64,000 nt of DNA from NCBI RefSeq assembly GCF_000497125.1, contig NC_090599.1, forward strand, positions 1,426,001-1,490,000, written 5' to 3'. The notes below the pieces were generated by a model that was given only the letters and a program-made list of their open reading frames with translations, was not told where the DNA came from and did not search any database. Position 1 is the first letter of the stretch, and every line of letters begins with the position of its first letter. The position numbers were made by a program, and so were the translations under genes. The stretch comes from Spironucleus salmonicida (taxonomy: Eukaryota). Of the stretch, positions 1 through 46,014 are shown in pieces.

Positions 1-930
1 TACACTGGCAGTGATAAATTTCTCATTTTTAGTAATTAAGTAAAATATTAAACAAATGATGCTTGCAATTGAATTATCAAAAGCTTGCCAAGCACTTCTA
101 CCCAATTTTAATTCAGTAGAAATTGTCTTCTCAATCTACAATCTTTTTTATTTCCTAAATTAACTTGCAATTACTCCTAGTATTCCAAATCCGAAAAATG
201 CAAGCAGAGCTTTGTATGAAACATATAAATGGAATGCTAAAATAAAAATAGATATTATAGCTCCATTTTTAGTTAATTTGCGCTTTATCATTAAAAATGA
301 AGAAATATGAATTAAAATAGTCATAATAAAAACCTTATATGGAGAGTAAAATGACAAATATGTTAGTAAAGTAATTGTAAAATTATCTGATATTGCAGGT
401 ATAGACTCACCTAAACATGCTACTAATGCGGAAAATATATTAATATCACCATAAAACCATTGACAAATAATGGTCCCGAACAATGTTAAAAATACACCTA
501 ATATAGTTTTCTACGGATTTGATGGCAGTGCTTTGCTTTTAAAATAAGTAGAAAATCCAGCAAGTCCATCACCACCAATTAATGCACATAGTGACATGCC
601 AAATTTATGGTCACATTTAAAAATTGGATAAGCAATTACTAAAGCAAAATATGTTATAATTTCAAATGGGTAAGGCTTGTTATTTTTAGAGAGCAAAATC
701 GGAACAAATATAAAATTAGGTATTATTAAACAAATAAGATAAATAAATAACCCTATTCCAGGATACAGTGCTGAAATTAATGGACATTATTCCGGATTAA
801 CAAAATAATTAATGAAAACAAATCCTGTAACTATATGAGTTATTTTTCTAATATATCTTTATGGAAGCATTATAACACTAATTGATAAAACTATAATCAT
901 TAAACCAGCGGATATAAATTATTTATTCAT
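1..930 (-). CDS. Phytol/farnesol kinase-like (CTP_transf_1, VTE5/FOLK-type) domain fused to a DUF92 (VTE6/TMEM19-type) domain; 3' end runs off the window
   Basis: Code-6 translation from ATG 930: RKITHIVTG, GGDGLAG, LPSNPQKTILG, ACLGESIPAISDNFTITL (polyprenol kinase motifs), then KRKLTKNGAI...LGRSAWQAFDNS (DUF92-like). No TGA down to base 1. Confidence 0.8.
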
Positions 931-1086: not shown

Positions 1087-4000
1087 TCATTTATTAGAAT
1101 CTCTACAGCTTTCAGAATTTGTTGCTTATCCACCATGACCAGTAGCACTTAATATTTATTACACACATATTTACTAATTAGAAATGAAGTAGTCAAAATC
1201 CACATATTCCGAAGTAAATTCAATAGCCTTCCCTATATTAACTTCCATTTAACTTATAACATCGTATAAATGACCTTAAAATTCAGCTTTTCCATAGCTA
1301 ATAATATCAAAAACTAACTAACTTACAGCTACAGAATTTAATCTAGCATTAGACTAAACTGTGTCTGCTTCTTTAGGTACTTTTCCAAAAGCATCAAATC
1401 TGCAAAGTTTATGACCTAAAAGGGATCCGATAACATTACCATATGCAATACCCACACGAAGTGATACCAAATTTTCAAATTATGGATGCATTTTTCTCAT
1501 TGTCTCTTTACAGTCATGAATAAATCCCAGTCCTACTGCTAAAAGAATAACTATTGCATCATACGACTTTCTTAATTCTGATGGAGTTTTAAATAACTTT
1601 TATAAATGCGCAGGTAATTATTTTTCAAATGTTGCTTTTTCTTTGTAGTCTTAAGTATATATCTTTAAAGTACATGGCAATGACATTAGTTCATAAGAAT
1701 CACCAGAAATTTTAATTTAAATTAAATTTTTGGCTTTTGAGATTCTGGTATCAAATTTATGGAATAAATTATCTAAAAAGCTCATCATCTATTCGACAGT
1801 TATTGATGTTGAAAATTATGTGAAATTTGCAATATCAAGATTTAAATAAGCTACATTATCAAAATTAATAACGGGCCGTGTTTATGTTAAATTTTTTGTG
1901 TTTGGTAGAGACAAGTAGTCATTGAATTTTCGATATAATTTTACTGATATATCTTAATTTTTTTCCTCAGATAGTATAGATTAAGATTGATATTTTAGTA
2001 GTTTTTTATTATTTTCTTTAATTCCCATATTTTTTAATAATAATAAAGTATCTTAGTACTTATGTAAAAATGGAAAAGAGTGTAGTAATCTTTTTAATAG
2101 TTCTGGTGATGACGTAGCTAATAATGAATCTATAGTGATATGTGGCAATACTGATCTTAGTAATTATCTTCCGTTGTTAATTTGTTAAATAGCCTTAATA
2201 TTAATCAAAATGTTTCCAAAATATAATTTAATGAGTGGAAATAATGCAACTACAATAATTAAATAAACAACAAACATAAAAGATGCTAAGAATGTTTCTT
2301 TCTGTAAAAACACTACTAAAAATATGAAAATAAACATTGTTGTCACACTAAATGTTCTGGATATAAAAAATTATGGCATTGTAATGAATGAAAATTAAGA
2401 TATAATAAAGACAAGTATTTATAATATCTGAAGTGTTAATAATGAAATTTGAAGGTTATTAGAAAGGTAAACATTAATGTTTTAATTTAAAATAATGTAC
2501 GATTTTACGCAAAATAGTGCAAAAAACCCTAATAAATTATAGAAGTAAATTTGGCCAACACTTTTAACTTAATCATAAGATTTAATATTCTAGAATACAT
2601 TTTTCTTCTTTTGCTTTCTAATAGTTAACATTAACTGTGTTATTATAGATATGTTTGTGATTAGTATTATCATTTAAAAATATTATGGGTAATAAAGTGC
2701 ATTTTATAGACTAACTTCAATAAACATTATTTAAATTTTTGTATTGACTATATGTGAATTCATAATAATTAAAATTTCTGTAAAAGTAGAAAATGCTAAA
2801 AATAACGTGGTAATAAAAAACATCCACTGATTAGTAGACTGAATATTAATTAATAAATATGATTTGTTCTTAGAATACTATTTTTAAATTTCTGAACTAA
2901 GTGAACTAATAAGTGCAATAAATTTTAAAAATCTCTAAATCATAACTGAATTATACTAACGATCGTACGAAAAAAATAATCTTTCAAATACTTGATCAAC
3001 AGGATACTCATCACCAAAAACTTCTTAGTCTTTATTAACTTCAACATTATCTTTGGAATTATTCTGCATATTAAAAATAGGTTATTAATCCACTGGAAAT
3101 TAATACTCTTAACTGATACTCTCTGCACTAGGTTAAATTTTGATTGTGCTGGTATTAATTTCCCCTTCTAGTTAAAGTTACTCGCCAAATTTAGTTGATA
3201 AATTTACAGCAGGTTAAAAAAATGAATCTTCAAACTCAGATTAAAGCGAGTCATTTAGATGCATTGTGACAACCCCACTAAAGCTTTATGATTAATCTTC
3301 TAAAACTTCTTCATTAAATTTTTCTTGGATACAAATTTAGTCTCTTTTGAGATTAGTAAGTCTAGCCATTTCAAGGAAGTTATTAAATTAAGGTTTTAAA
3401 GCTGATGTTGGGGTATCCTGGTTTATACTCAATTAATTACTGGAATATTTTCCTGCTAATATATTACTATTCTTTTTTATAATTTCTAAATCTTCAGAAG
3501 AGGATTGGCATGATTCTTATAAATTTTAGACTTTTGTCATACCTTAAGGATCCTCATCAAGCTAAAGTTATCTATCAGCTATCATGGGAAAATTACTATT
3601 AAAAAAACAATCTGAAAAATTAGCATATTAGACTGAAATTGATGAGGGTAATTTGAATGTTGATTTTTTAGTTAATATAACACTTAATGCTGATTCAACT
3701 GGAGAGTCTTTATTAAGCATTTGCTCTAGCTCTTTAGATTAAAATGAAAATTATAATAAATCTAACAAAGAATTATTGGACTATGTAAATGATTATTACT
3801 GAACAATATTAATTAAATCATAATCATCGTTAAAATCATTTTCATCTACACTGCCTGAAAAATAATTAGTGATTAAATCTAAGTCTTATTCATCGGGTGA
3901 AGTTTATTGATGAGTAACCATTACATCATGGGTGAATGGGATATATGCTTTTTTAAATGCTATATAAATCATTTCGATAAATTATTTTTCTTTAAAAATT

Positions 4001-5325
4001 TCAATTGTTCTTATATTACCTTTACCTTTATACTGTTTAACAGTAGACTTTCCAAAAAGATAATATGGCTAAGATAACAGCAAGTATTATTTAGCTTAAT
4101 TATAAATATCACCTCTGCCTAAATATTATTTTAAAAGATTATCATCTTAGTCATTTCTATTAGTAAAATCTTTATGTTATGGAGGACAATTAATAAAACT
4201 ATCAATCGCTATATGAACTCCTCTATCTGCATTTCGTGCTATACGAGCGGCAGTATTAATGGTATCACCATAAGTATCTAAGTTTACGTTAGCTGATCCT
4301 AGCCCTAAAACCCCTACCACTATATTTCCTTTTGTGATACCACATGCACATTCTAACTAATATGCTTTTGCAACTTCTTATGCCGACAAAGCGAAAAATG
4401 TCATTAGTTTCTATTATTAGTATTGAGATGAATAAGATGTTTCTGGAATTTATCCATTCATTGACTCAAGAAAATATTATGCTCCTGTACATGCCATGTA
4501 ATAAGAATACGAAGATTTAATTTTTTAAACACCACAAATATCTGTTAAAAAGTCTAGAATACAATAGAAACTATTAATACGTGATAAATATTCAATTGCT
4601 TCATCTGATTCTGGATTTACCAAAAGCTCATCTTATGTTTTTAAATGAATATAAATGTAAATAACTTGCGGAACTATATCACACGGAAGTTCTTTTGACT
4701 ATAATATCAAAGGTAAAAGTTTTGAAGGCAAAGCATTTACAAAAGATGTCATCAATGTAGAAGCCATTTAATTCATTGCATTAATTACTGGCTATTAATT
4801 ATATATTTCTACTAGCATTTTTTGTTTTATTAACATTATCAAACAAAACTAGCTGAAAACTAGTACAATAACTAAAATAAATTCATGTGAAGTTGAATTA
4901 GCATTAAAAACTTCTGCTAATAGATAAGAAAGAATAGCAACATAAAATATTTACAAAATAAGAACAGTTTTGCTAGTATTTATAAGCAAAAATAATTATA
5001 TAATGTAAATTACTTAGGCAAGAACATCTTGTTTCTCCTTTTTCAGGACATAAAAAAGTGCAAAATCCAAAAAAGCCACCAGAAGGCTTACTTGCTGTAA
5101 TTTAAACGTTTACATAGATGGCTTAGTTTTAACCAAATAAATTATTATGACCTAGAAGAAAATTGTGATAAATTTTACAACACAAACCCATATAAAATCT
5201 AGATGGCTATTATACCGAACCGTTGAAAAATATGACAAATAAGTCTGATAAACTGCTATAATTTGCAGTACTGAAATATATATATTGTCACTAAACTCGT
5301 AAATTGCCTGTTGTATCTCCCACAT
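1087..5325 (-). CDS. Class III transmembrane adenylyl cyclase with two TM clusters and two catalytic domains, 1412 aa
   Basis: Domain 1: GVQKIKSSYSYYMACTG ... VVGVLGLGSANVNLDTYGDTINTAARIA. Domain 2: DNVAYLNLDIANFT ... KIKISGDSY ... GNVIGSLLGHKLCRFDAFG. ATG 5325 is in frame with TGA 1087-1089. Confidence 0.9.
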
Positions 5326-5378
5326 TTTTTAATGTGAAAAGGAAAGGATTGTTATATATTATACAATAATGAATTAAA

Positions 5379-6815
5379 TCAAAAAAGTGAAACTGTTTTA
5401 GATTCCCCTTTGTCTGTCTTTGCAGCCTCTTGATGTGCAAGCATACCTTATGGCACATATACATTCTTCTATACTGCTTTAGCATTTTCAATATTTAGAT
5501 TTTCCTAAGCCACGCAAACTGCCACATTTTAAATTCCCCAATCGTCGCCTCGGCGTAACAATGTCATAACCTGTAGTTTTGGAATCTCGATAGACCAAAT
5601 CTCTTTCAAATCCAATCCCCTAACACTTATTCCATTATCAACGTTCAGTCTAGGAGCAAGTGTTCCCATCAATAGAAACATGTCATTGGAGCTGAACTAA
5701 CAGTGTGTTTTGTAGAGAATTTTCTCCTTTCCTGAAATTTGAATCTGCTGATCCAACAACTTCCCAGGACCAATTCTACAAGAGTAACAAATTCCGTCCA
5801 TTCCAGCTTCGCCGCGAATTATAAACTGATTCTTTCCTAGAGTCAGCGAGTTTATATTAGTTTTATATGAGAGGGAAAGATCCGTTATAGCAACTGCATT
5901 TTAAGTCGTTTTCAGTTCGGCCATTTTTATCTGTGTTGGAATCTTATCTATGATGTAAAAAAGATGCTCAATGGTGGGTGAAATAAGCATTGTATCAAGT
6001 CCATGAACTTGTTAAGATTATAGAGATAAATTAGTTTGCTTAAACGAAATGAGGTCGAAAAGGAACAACTAGCGGGTACCGTAGTAATTATATTATTTGC
6101 TATTTCTATCTATTTCTACTTTTACTGTAGCTATAAACCAAGAATGAAGCTTCGAGTTGAGGAACACAAAGCTATCTGCTTTTTGAAGAATCTTTTTTAT
6201 AATTTCACACTAGTTTTTATAAACACGAATATAGCCAGGGTCTTATTGAGATATATAAGCAGATGCAATAACAAGTACATCTTTACAATATGTTATTTAA
6301 ATTAATCTTGGCTGCTAAGTAGGCTTTTTATCAGTGCCTTACTGTGGTGGAATAGCAGTGTGAACAATCTCTGTTTCTTCAGTTATTAAATTTAGAGATT
6401 TAATATAGATCTCATCTTAGAATGTGAATTATTCTTCATTTGAGTTAAATTAACCCACATGCTTTATATCAATAATTTTGAGGTCAGATAGAATGGAATT
6501 ACCAGATAAATCTAAAACACTATAATATGTTCTATAAATAACAGTAACAAAATTACCCTTAGGTGACAATTAAAAACTAATTGGGTTATCCTAAATTTTT
6601 ATTAAGATAGATGTATAATCATTTAAAGATGTAAATGATAATATTTCTATCTCATTAATAGATTTTAAAAATGCTAATTTCACTATATTTTCATACTTAA
6701 TTTAATGATAAACACAACTTACAGTAGATAAATCTATTATCTTGTTAATGTTACCATTATCTTATAATTATGATAAATATAAAGTTCCAAACGTTCCTAA
6801 AATAATATTATCCAT
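5379..6815 (-). CDS. EIF2A: Translation initiation factor eIF2A (beta-propeller), 478 aa
   Basis: Fully translated. FQLSPKGNFV, PGYIRVYK..KILQKAD, VEIDRNSKQYNYYGTRQLFL and THCQFSSNDMFLLMGTLAPRLNVDNGISV (cf. eIF2A TATCAPRLRVNNGYKI). Confidence 0.85.
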
Positions 6816-38029: not shown

Positions 38030-40270
<2,241 letters not shown>

Positions 40271-42105: not shown

Positions 42106-43773
42106 ATGGATTAACTTTTCACACATTCAACTCAAATTTTGACGCAGCTGCTTGTAAACTGTATTAGTGATGCCTTATATATACTGATAGATCCAGATCA
42201 ACTGGAATAGGTTAACTATCATTATCTAAGTCTATTTAAACCATACCAAATAATGCTTATTTCACCTACTATTTCTCCATAAAAATTCAAAACTAATGCA
42301 ACTATTATCTTTATTTCAAAGAATCATTTAATACCAGTGATTACTAGCATTATTTCAACCATATCAGCAAAACTTCCAAGTGCACAATTCCATCTTTTTT
42401 CAACTCCAAAACTTTCTCTTACTTCTGATGCTTTTCTACGGCAGCACCACGTTATCGATAAAATTTTAACATTCGAAAACGTTAACTTCGATATCTCACA
42501 ATCTTATGATTCAAACTGCTTTATTTTGAGCGCCAGAAATATTGAATATGATATGTCTAGATTCTCGATTAACTGTGTCTAAGAGATAGCAGAAATTGCT
42601 TTTTAGACTCTTAAAGTTCTGGGCGGTGCCAAGTGTATTTAAGCACGAGGGAAAATTGCAATATAAGCTGGAAAATCTTTAGAAAGACTTGTTTTGGAAG
42701 AGAATTTGACATTTAATAAAATTAAATTTGAATAGGTAATTTTTGTTGATCGTCTGACCGATATGCTTAGTGTTATGGTTACAGGCTAGTCTTATATGGA
42801 GCAATTGGACTCACATCTGAAAATTTAGTAAAATAAAGTAGATAACCAGCCAATTTATGATTGCTTTGATATTGTTGTTCAAGATTGTAAGTACACTCAC
42901 ATAAATAATTTAGGGGATAAAATTTCCATTTTGGCTAAAAATGCATAAGCAAAAGTGAAGGAATGTAAGGAAATTTAAGGTGATAAATCGAGACCTATCA
43001 GCGAAATTTCATAGGCATTTGAGGGTTACAAGAAAGCTGAAGCTGCAGCAGTTTTCATTAATGAACACACGTAACGAATTTTAAAAATATAACAATCACG
43101 GAATGCTGTATATTGTGAGGAAATTCTTCTTAAAAAAGAAATTTTAGATAGTAGGGGGCGTGGTAAAACCGATTTAGTTTTTAAATAAATTAACAGTGGA
43201 AAAGATTTGCAGACAGTTTTAGAATATCTTTCGATAATTTCTATGTCTGTTGGAGGCCTTAAAGCAAAAGATTTATTTACTATTAAGAAGCTCATCACTT
43301 TGACATATGGTTTATAAGGATTGGCTTTACTCAATCAGTTTTAAAAACTTGGATTAGTTACAAATACTGACTAGGAGCAGATTTATTAAGATATTTTTAA
43401 AGAATATCACATTGTAGAGTAGAAAGATAACGAAAAAATTGATTATCAGTAAATAAGCTATCCTTTTACTGGAATCACACCGATTAATGTTAGGAATATT
43501 TAGGAGATGATTTTTGGATCTAAAGACAAGAAAAAACAAATTGGCTAATGGTAAGGAAATGTTACTTATAAGAAACAGTTAACCACAGAATCTCCGGAGA
43601 AGCCCAAGTTTCTAGTATTTTATATTGGTCCAATTACTCATAGCGAGCTTGCCAGTATCGACGTTATTAGAAGGTAAGCTTAGAAAACTGATCCAAATTT
43701 CGAAATTTAGATAATTGCTAGCGACTTAAAAACTGGTAAAGATATCATGAAAACAATTTGCTAGGTTATGTGA
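42106..43773 (+). CDS. VPS33: Sec1/Munc18-family protein, Vps33-like, 555 aa
   Basis: VIFVDRLTDMLSVMVTGQSYMEQLD (cf. [24 protein letters not shown]), LITLTYG, VFYIGPITHSELASI. Confidence 0.8.
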
Positions 43774-44822: not shown

Positions 44823-45000
44823 TTTTTAGGTATAAAGAGAATATGAAAACCTATTATTATATAATTATATGCTAAAATAAAATTCTGATAGTATTTTTAT
44901 GGAAATAAGTTGTTCACTCAATTTATGTAATATACGATATATAAGTACTCATACCTAATAATAATTTGTAATATCAATTTTATATAGTCAACAACCTTAA

Positions 45001-45010
45001 GCCATTTCCA
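45001..45010 (+). promoter_or_regulatory. C-rich upstream element GCCATTTCCA (ALG7)
   Basis: 8 nt before the ATG. Confidence 0.5.
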
Positions 45011-45018
45011 ATAAATTA

Positions 45019-46014
45019 ATGTCACAGTACTGGACTGCTATAGCATAGTTAATGTTACTGCCACTCTGCTCTGCCCTATTCACACTTTATACATTGCCAA
45101 AATTTCTTCCGTTGCTGCTTTAAAAAAATCTTGGCGGGTTCGACTTAAACAAACCCAGAGAACATCAAACAGAGAAAACGCCTGAAGCTGCGGGGATTGT
45201 GCTGTTAATCAGTTTTTGTATTTTTTCCGCTCCGCTGAACTCCCATCTCCGTGTTTCGCTCATTTCGGCGGGTCTTTTAGGATTCGTTGACAATGTTCTG
45301 GATCTCAAATGGAGGTGGAAGATCATTATTCCTCTATTCTAGCTTATTGAATTGGGTATGTACCACATTGGTTTGGGGTGCATAGAGCTAGAATTACCGT
45401 TTATGAATTTGAAACTGTCGTATTTATCTCCTTTTTTGGTTATTATTTACTCTATTATATCCCAAAATTTGGTTAACATTTATGCAGGAATTAATGGCCT
45501 GGAAATTGGATAATCTATCGTCGCTTAGGTGTTTTTATTCACATACGTCACTATCAGAGACGGATTTAGCTCTATTTTATCATTAAACTTAGATTTTGCA
45601 ATTCTTACAGCACTTTTTGTATCAGGGTCTTTTGTTTTGTATTAATACAATAAATATCCAGCTAAAGCTTTTGTTGGTGATGTTTATACATATTTTGCAG
45701 GAAGTTGTTATGTTGCATCAGCTGTTTCAGGTAGAGCAGTCGTACTATCCATATTTTTATATTTTATGCAAATTATTAATTGCGGTGCTAGTTTACCATA
45801 ATTGCTAAAAATTGTACCTTGCCCTAGACATAGATTGCTTGAGCTTAGAAAAGATGGCAAGTTGTATGGATAAAAATGTAATTGGAATAACATTAATTAG
45901 TTTTCTCTCAAAGTTTTTAGAAGAGGATTATTTGAATATCAATTATTTAATTATTTAATGATAATTTAGATATTCGTAAGTCTTATTGTAGTATTTGTCG
46001 CATTATATGTATGA
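45019..46014 (+). CDS. ALG7: UDP-GlcNAc:dolichyl-phosphate GlcNAc-1-P transferase, 331 aa
   Basis: GFDLNKP, PEAAGI, GFVDNVLDLKWRWK, NIYAGINGLEIGQS, NKYPAKAFVGD, PCPRHR. Confidence 0.95.

Follow-up and report, generated by a model that had tools for sequence, protein, structure and literature searches.

An intact gene at the left edge of the analyzed diplomonad DNA, a stretch of 64,000 nucleotides (G000:C4:1426001-1490000) that we call the window, joins a candidate prenol-kinase-type domain to a DUF92 domain in one reading frame. It belongs to a known type of fusion; its context sets it apart, since no other candidate is visible for a pathway gap that has been documented. The protein would be a multi-pass membrane enzyme with two domains in tandem, both from the CTP-dependent cytidylyltransferase/prenol-kinase superfamily. 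We propose that it carries out a two-step, CTP-dependent salvage of prenols, a reading to which we assign a probability of about 0.6, its activity, substrates, use of CTP and essentiality all being predictions.

The fusion gene and its surroundings

Positions 1 to 930 of the window form a single minus-strand frame of 310 codons (NCBI table 6) that is open at the window edge. As the first-pass annotation of this DNA had anticipated, the frame continues past the window: the full fusion ORF (L001:1084-2430, minus strand) extends 417 nt beyond the edge, encodes a complete protein of 448 aa and ends at a stop codon in the flanking genome sequence. The features referred to below are the following (window coordinates unless a locus is named).

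1..930, minus strand: 5' part of the fusion ORF, a membrane protein; 310 of 448 codons, table 6
L001:1084-1500 (G000:C4:1425584-1426000), minus strand: last 138 codons and stop of the fusion ORF, left of the window
346..930, minus strand: prenol-kinase-type (COG0170-like) domain, aa 1 to ~195, from hhalign and predicted structure
835..849, minus strand: RKxxH motif (R28, K29, H32), RKITHI at aa 28-33
496..576, minus strand: CTP/metal-binding-type segment GGD121GLA...K141-T142-x-x-G145, a sequence motif
382..408, minus strand: E175...D182-N183 at the end of the kinase-type domain, ESIPAISDN at aa 175-183
1..309, minus strand: first part of the DUF92 (PF01940) domain, aa 208-310; D319 and D393 fall beyond the window edge
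44869..46014, plus strand: ALG7/DPAGT1-type glycosyl transferase family 4, a Dol-P consumer (PF00953, 78.4 bits, E 8e-22); context only, unlinked to the fusion gene

All the kinase-type and DUF92 motifs quoted in the first-pass annotation are present in the ORF, two of them with one spacer residue more than written. The ALG7 gene that it had placed at 45019 is also there, this position being an in-frame Met of the plus-strand gene listed above.

Within the fusion ORF, 9 TAA/TAG codons are decoded as Gln. In the genome (14.5 Mb, 42 contigs), which reads TAA and TAG as Gln, the fusion gene was the only DUF92 locus found, and a bacterial fusion used as the query matched this single-copy locus alone. 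The domain junction is bridged by contigs from all four public runs of one study, with no difference, indel or joint listed; a 1353-nt contig from these runs, which may be RNA, covers L001:1070-2422 and thereby comes near both gene ends. The GC content of the fusion gene is 0.30 compared to 0.28 for the window, and its GC3 is 0.21 compared to 0.19 for the upstream gene. A contaminant origin was rejected on the basis of the reassigned Gln codons, the matching GC and GC3 and the 1.7-Mb length of the contig. The fusion gene is native to this genome.

The upstream neighbor (window 1087-5382, minus strand) encodes a membrane protein of ~1410-1430 aa that resembles, by eye, a two-domain class III adenylate/guanylate cyclase. 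On the downstream side, left of the window, lies a gene with a zinc-finger-like Cys/His pattern (L001:147-940, minus strand). Its GC and GC3 are 0.56 and 0.77, an abrupt step in composition from the 0.30 and 0.21 of the fusion gene. Elsewhere in the window, the ORFs at 38030-40270 (minus strand) and 42106-43773 (plus strand) look by eye dynamin-like and Sec1/Vps33-like, respectively, and would be ordinary trafficking genes.

Domains, relatives and origin

The two-domain architecture read from the window was borne out in the complete protein, by Pfam for the DUF92 half and by hhalign and residue conservation for the kinase-type half. The C-terminal half matched the PF01940 HMM over nearly the whole model (aa 208-440, model positions 5-250 of 251), with 142.3 bits against a cut-off of 27.5 and an E value of 2.3e-41 in the full protein, compared to 2.6e-8 for the window-encoded part only. 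This half harbors the motifs LTKNGA (aa 219-224) and GRSAWQAFDNS (aa 277-287). Furthermore, the motif ADTxASExG, predicted to lie in the C terminus beyond the window, was found there as the variant TDTFGSDLG (aa 318-326). In alignment A2, which comprises 46 full-length rows including the fusion protein itself, R278, D319, G345, G348, G354, G397, N429 and N433 are invariant (46/46), and position 393 is Asp in 41 rows and Glu in 5. We take D319 and D393 to be the aspartate pair to which PMC5898192 refers. The equivalog cut-off of TIGR00297 was not reached (81.6 bits versus 205.85, E 6.7e-23).

The N-terminal half matched no Pfam or NCBIfam family. PF01148, the profile by which the first-pass annotation had hoped to recognize the kinase half, gave no match in the full protein, and this model also misses most relatives, detecting 1 of the 25 members of A1 (E 0.0013) and, below the cut-off, one out of three stand-alone sequences. 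We collected 84 shorter relatives of the N-half of a bacterial fusion, among which three carry the source name phytol kinase and one phosphatidate cytidylyltransferase, and used 77 of them for a stand-alone kinase HMM. Against this HMM the N-half alone scored 6.0 bits, a value exceeded by 1 of 500 shuffles; the Hexamita inflata protein reached 38.9 bits, three diplomonad-type fragments lay between 23 and 39 bits, and 38.6 bits was the score of a second orthologue. Because the N-half alone is weak against the kinase HMM, its assignment goes through orthologues, profile-profile matching and residue conservation. Two fragments covering only the N-half match the fusion protein at E values of 2e-22 and 7e-22. 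An hhalign comparison of 11 diplomonad-type with 40 stand-alone bacterial sequences, whose names come from database sources and not from assay, gave a probability of 97.2 and an E value of 4.2e-11 over aa 19-194.

Residue conservation points the same way. In alignment A2, R28, K29 and H32 are kept in 38-39 of the 46 rows (7 rows are gapped there), K141 in 45, N183 in 44, and D121, G145, E175 and D182 in 43 each. Across 47 kinase domains, ten positions that are kept in the N-half are at least 90% conserved: R28, K29, H32, D121, A124, K141, G145, E175, D182 and N183. The half also carries GGDGLAG (aa 119-125) and LPSNPQKTILG (aa 135-145), and the GGDGxAG and KS/TxxG motifs are common to the diplomonad-type sequences that cover them. 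By homology, the N-half is a candidate divergent prenol-kinase-type domain. Two family glycines are replaced, by E90 (Gly in 42/46) and T128 (Gly in 38/46). These lost glycines, the weak stand-alone HMM score and the very long branch on which the N-half tree described below places the lineage would fit a decayed N-half that acts as a scaffold, with the DUF92 half alone active and the first phosphorylation taking place elsewhere or being unneeded. The ten retained residues, which span R28 to N183, and the motifs shared by the diplomonad-type sequences argue against such decay, which we regard as quite improbable.

AlphaFold2 modeled the full-length protein (pLDDT 92.6, pTM 0.88) and the N-half (pLDDT 90.3) with high confidence. 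In wide structural searches, the archaeal CTP-transferase CarS (5GUF) came first for both halves, at Z scores that are within the range helical proteins reach by chance: 7.7 for the N-half (rmsd 3.0, 92 residues aligned, aa 106-200), tied with designed helical proteins, and 6.9 for the C-half (rmsd 3.6, 120 residues aligned, aa 294-448), tied with unrelated helical rows. CdsA (4Q2E) was listed for both halves (Z 5.1 and 6.2 for the C- and N-half, in that order). Foldseek returned nothing at an E value of 0.001 or lower with either model. Its ranks 1-4 for the N-half were all CdsA chains (E 0.43-0.98). A PDB sequence search gave only two lactate oxidase rows (E 0.27-0.28). The CarS and CdsA matches agree, short of proof, with a tandem arrangement of domains that both come from a single superfamily. 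We also observed that aa 237-389 of the DUF92 half give a weak alignment (2.7 bits) with the kinase HMM in the region of the catalytic Asp, which fits a distant homology of the two halves.

The kinase family also includes dolichol and DAG kinases, the yeast enzyme Dgk1 being one of the latter. With CDP-archaeol and CDP-DAG synthases as the nearest solved folds and one stand-alone relative carrying the source name phosphatidate cytidylyltransferase, the protein could instead be a non-isoprenoid lipid enzyme, for instance a CTP-dependent DAG kinase or a CDP-lipid enzyme in phospholipid remodelling. This seems to us a long shot: phytol kinase is the name given to three of the other stand-alone relatives, the genome has a separate CDS-like gene, the one tested DUF92 enzyme, VTE6, is a phytyl-P kinase (PMC5745509, PMC9782597), and archaeal DUF92 genes are described as adjoining uppS (PMC5898192). 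A prenol substrate remains our preferred reading.

A full-library search with the fusion protein yielded 2077 proteins at an E value of 0.001 or lower. Among the best 150 of these 2077, the top non-self match was a Hexamita inflata protein of 451 aa (40% identity, E 7e-77), present in 4 copies, an orthologue annotated only as a transmembrane domain-containing protein. Next came fragments of 129-248 aa (32-42% identity) that probably belong to other diplomonads and that group with H. inflata in the N-half tree where included. They were followed, within the same 150, by prokaryote-type fusions and stand-alone DUF92 proteins at ~24-35% identity; Ferruginibacter, Saprospiraceae, Lachnospiraceae and Anaerococcus are among the names of the prokaryote-type relatives. 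Forty-one non-self matches in this set are 400-560 aa long, and 32 of them have the RKxxH motif. Thirty proteins looked up by name included none from Giardia. Metagenomes scanned with the Hexamita protein yielded no match, plasmids gave one DUF92-only match, and two word-based homologue searches recovered 6 proteins each, with no named eukaryote among them.

The origin of the gene was addressed with a FastTree phylogeny of 147 DUF92 segments and with IQ-TREE (LG+F+G4) and AU tests on 51 hand-picked rows (48 of the 147 segments plus 3 fragments). In both trees, which are open to long-branch attraction, the diplomonad-type DUF92 sequences sit on a long branch of their own, and the TMEM19-like clade does not contain them. 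None of four placements was rejected by the AU test, i.e., with TMEM19-like proteins (p 0.216), Firmicutes-type fusions (p 0.162), Bacteroidota-type fusions (p 0.512) or a second Firmicutes-like group (p 0.156), these labels resting on few named members or on the analyst's reading (1 of the 7 TMEM19-like rows bears that name). The N-half tree, built from a set without a eukaryotic reference, placed the lineage among Firmicutes-like sequences (branch 1.88, SH 81). Local signatures of the DUF92 half are shared with TMEM19-like rows (LQYSG, GxNGG, SNGAVN and a one-residue gap). The TMEM19-like HMM was the best of six group HMMs for the fusion protein (146.7 versus 119-132 bits) and the best in just 2 of 5 diplomonad-type sequences. 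The lateral acquisition that the first-pass annotation had called probable was not upheld: the AU test keeps the TMEM19 placement (p 0.22) as well as three bacterial ones (p 0.16-0.51).

Seven GTDB loci were inspected for gene neighbors. In one, from an Oscillospiraceae (L012:1444-5365, plus strand), the fusion directly follows flavin-desaturase-like and squalene/phytoene synthase genes, an arrangement that suggests prenol salvage feeding into carotenoid synthesis. In two others of the seven, a kinase-like gene stands beside a DUF92-type gene.

Isoprenoid metabolism and the proposed salvage route

Family searches of the genome were run at an E value of up to 1 and each controlled on 14 named genomes, as a loose first look that can miss divergent diplomonad genes. 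At this threshold there was no genome match for HMG-CoA reductase (PF00368; control 5/14), IspG (PF04551; control 9/14) or trans-polyprenyl (FPP/GGPP) synthase (PF00348; control 14/14). A mevalonate-type kinase was not found either, the sole GHMP kinase carrying a galactokinase signature.

Several consumers of isoprenoid lipids were present. Three PF00432 matches over the cut-off correspond to prenyltransferase beta subunits, in which what we take to be the CY and His motifs of the zinc site are kept, with Cys replacing the presumed zinc-site Asp in one. This divergent subunit (L005:1261-2547, plus strand, G000:C3 near 380868) lies tail to tail with an alpha-subunit-like gene (L005:2558-3280, minus strand; PF01239 E 0.003, below the cut-off). 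ICMT (PF04140) had no genome match at E values of up to 1 (control 6/14); the organism may have prenylated CaaX proteins without methylation, or its ICMT may be too divergent for detection. STT3 is present in the genome in addition to ALG7. A single cis-prenyltransferase-like gene was found (L006:1081-1836, plus strand, G000:C6 near 257544), with a Pfam match of 40 residues only. The family motif is DGNxR; here the first motif reads DGDGEH and the RTSGE motif is retained, so that the enzyme looks degenerate.

For S. salmonicida and Trepomonas, Table S1 of PMC7762791 records the absence of HMGR, MVK, PMK, DMD, IPP isomerase, FPP and GPP synthase and tRNA dimethylallyltransferase; FTase, Rab GGTase and ALG7 are recorded there as present. 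In published reconstructions, including the accessible text of PMC7762791, Hexamitinae have lost mevalonate and FPP synthesis and retained protein farnesylation and Rab geranylgeranylation, the source of the lipid donors not being named there. Since no de novo route was found and the consumers are kept, the organism apparently requires C15/C20 diphosphates and Dol-P and is unable to assemble them from C5 units. The protist seems to have no means of synthesizing isoprenoid lipids itself, and the fusion gene is the only candidate that we found for filling this prenyl-phosphate gap.

We hypothesize that free isoprenoid alcohols are taken up from the host or from food, that the N-half uses CTP to convert farnesol or geranylgeraniol to the monophosphate and that the DUF92 half attaches a second phosphate, the step that plant VTE6 carries out on phytyl-P. 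FPP and GGPP would then be supplied to the three retained protein prenyltransferases, and dolichol could plausibly be phosphorylated once by the same N-half. The choice among phytol, farnesol, geranylgeraniol, dolichol and DAG as the substrate cannot be read from sequence. The first-pass annotation had suggested that salvaged prenyl diphosphates may serve prenylation or dolichol synthesis. Salvage itself has gained strong circumstantial support from the retained consumers and from the lack of any detected de novo route or FPP synthase. Dolichol synthesis from salvaged prenyl-PP became doubtful, because IPP, which chain elongation requires, had no detected source and the cis-prenyltransferase looks degenerate; direct phosphorylation of scavenged dolichol appears to fit better.

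Dol-P supply might even be the main job of the protein, with the N-half as the lineage's dolichol kinase serving ALG7 and STT3, and with FPP and GGPP obtained otherwise, for instance as host diphosphates. Both Dol-P-dependent genes are indeed present, the cis-prenyltransferase matches just 40 residues of its Pfam model, and the sole PF01148 match in the genome is a CDP-DAG-synthase-like ORF. Furthermore, Table S1 of PMC7762791 is without a row for EC 2.7.1.108 and counts dolichyl-diphosphatase among the losses of S. salmonicida. However, this explanation leaves the DUF92 half without a role, the N-half has 200 aa compared to the 15-TM layout of DOLK, and a separate divergent Sec59 may have escaped the genome searches. 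We consider this explanation unlikely, and it is partly compatible with the two-step prenol salvage that we favor.

A stronger form of the salvage reading would make the fusion protein the Hexamitinae's only entry to FPP, GGPP and Dol-P, these organisms being obligate salvagers. Its presence in the diplomonad ancestor would have allowed the loss of the mevalonate-FPP synthase route, and the C-half would be an orthologue of TMEM19, pointing to TMEM19 as the animal prenyl-phosphate kinase. We doubt that all of this holds. The genes of animal prenol salvage are described as not yet assigned in PMC9782597 and PMC13022625, and the word TMEM19 is absent from these two reviews.

In the open full-text literature, which excludes subscription papers, we found neither an enzyme assay of any COG0170-COG1836 fusion nor a paper assigning the fusion gene or any diplomonad prenol-salvage enzyme. 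The supplements of PMC4967989, PMC7985675 and, for the part covered, PMC3916229 do not mention DUF92 or phytol. With this one gene, the documented prenyl-donor gap of the Hexamitinae becomes directly testable with a single protein. If our reading is true, a natural two-step enzyme from an apparently dependent organism would offer a clean system for prenol-salvage chemistry, and it might serve as a drug target, provided that the organism is the fish parasite that it seems to be.

Comparison with known systems

The domain layout is already known, having been described in archaea in 2015, and the fusion itself is thus not new. According to PMC5898192, archaeal proteins of arCOG02245 such as Mbar_A3310 carry an N-terminal Sec59-like domain, and pfam01940 is linked to pfam01148; COG1836 had been tied to phytol-phosphate metabolism in 2011 (PMC3223725). 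The prokaryotic COG0170-COG1836 fusions have the same domain order in one chain and keep the catalytic-type aspartates in both domains. Unlike them, the diplomonad gene is nuclear, coded in table 6 and found in a host without detected isoprenoid synthesis, and identity to the prokaryotic fusions is only ~25-34%.

Among eukaryotic proteins, those of the TMEM19 type share the DUF92 domain, but they are stand-alone in the matches seen. Sec59/DOLK shares with the N-half the D-x-x-A...K-T-x-x-G core of the CTP-binding motif, whereas the N-half departs from that motif at its two glycines, a lysine and the glutamate and is far shorter than the 15-TM DOLK. When compared to the DOLK motif DXXAXXXGXXXGX8KKTXEG as given in PMC13586052, the N-half has 5 of the 9 fixed positions, with a spacer one residue shorter.

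The Arabidopsis proteins VTE5/FOLK and VTE6, which act in the salvage of phytol and farnesol, belong to the same two domain families and have the same predicted two-step chemistry, a likeness by family and not by sequence comparison. In plants they are separate proteins that feed tocopherol and phylloquinone. In Plasmodium, PolK has been modeled with a "charged clamp" of R29, K30 and H33 and takes part in farnesol and geranylgeraniol salvage in the parasite, plant VTE6 being the only second kinase named as identified in the available text of that study (PMC10849223). PolK is a single-domain protein in an organism that keeps the MEP pathway, unlike the two-domain fusion described here. Nevertheless, its clamp and its Thr/Glu "hinge" have counterparts in the fusion protein, by motif and not by alignment, in R28, K29, H32, T142 and E175 (PMC10849223).
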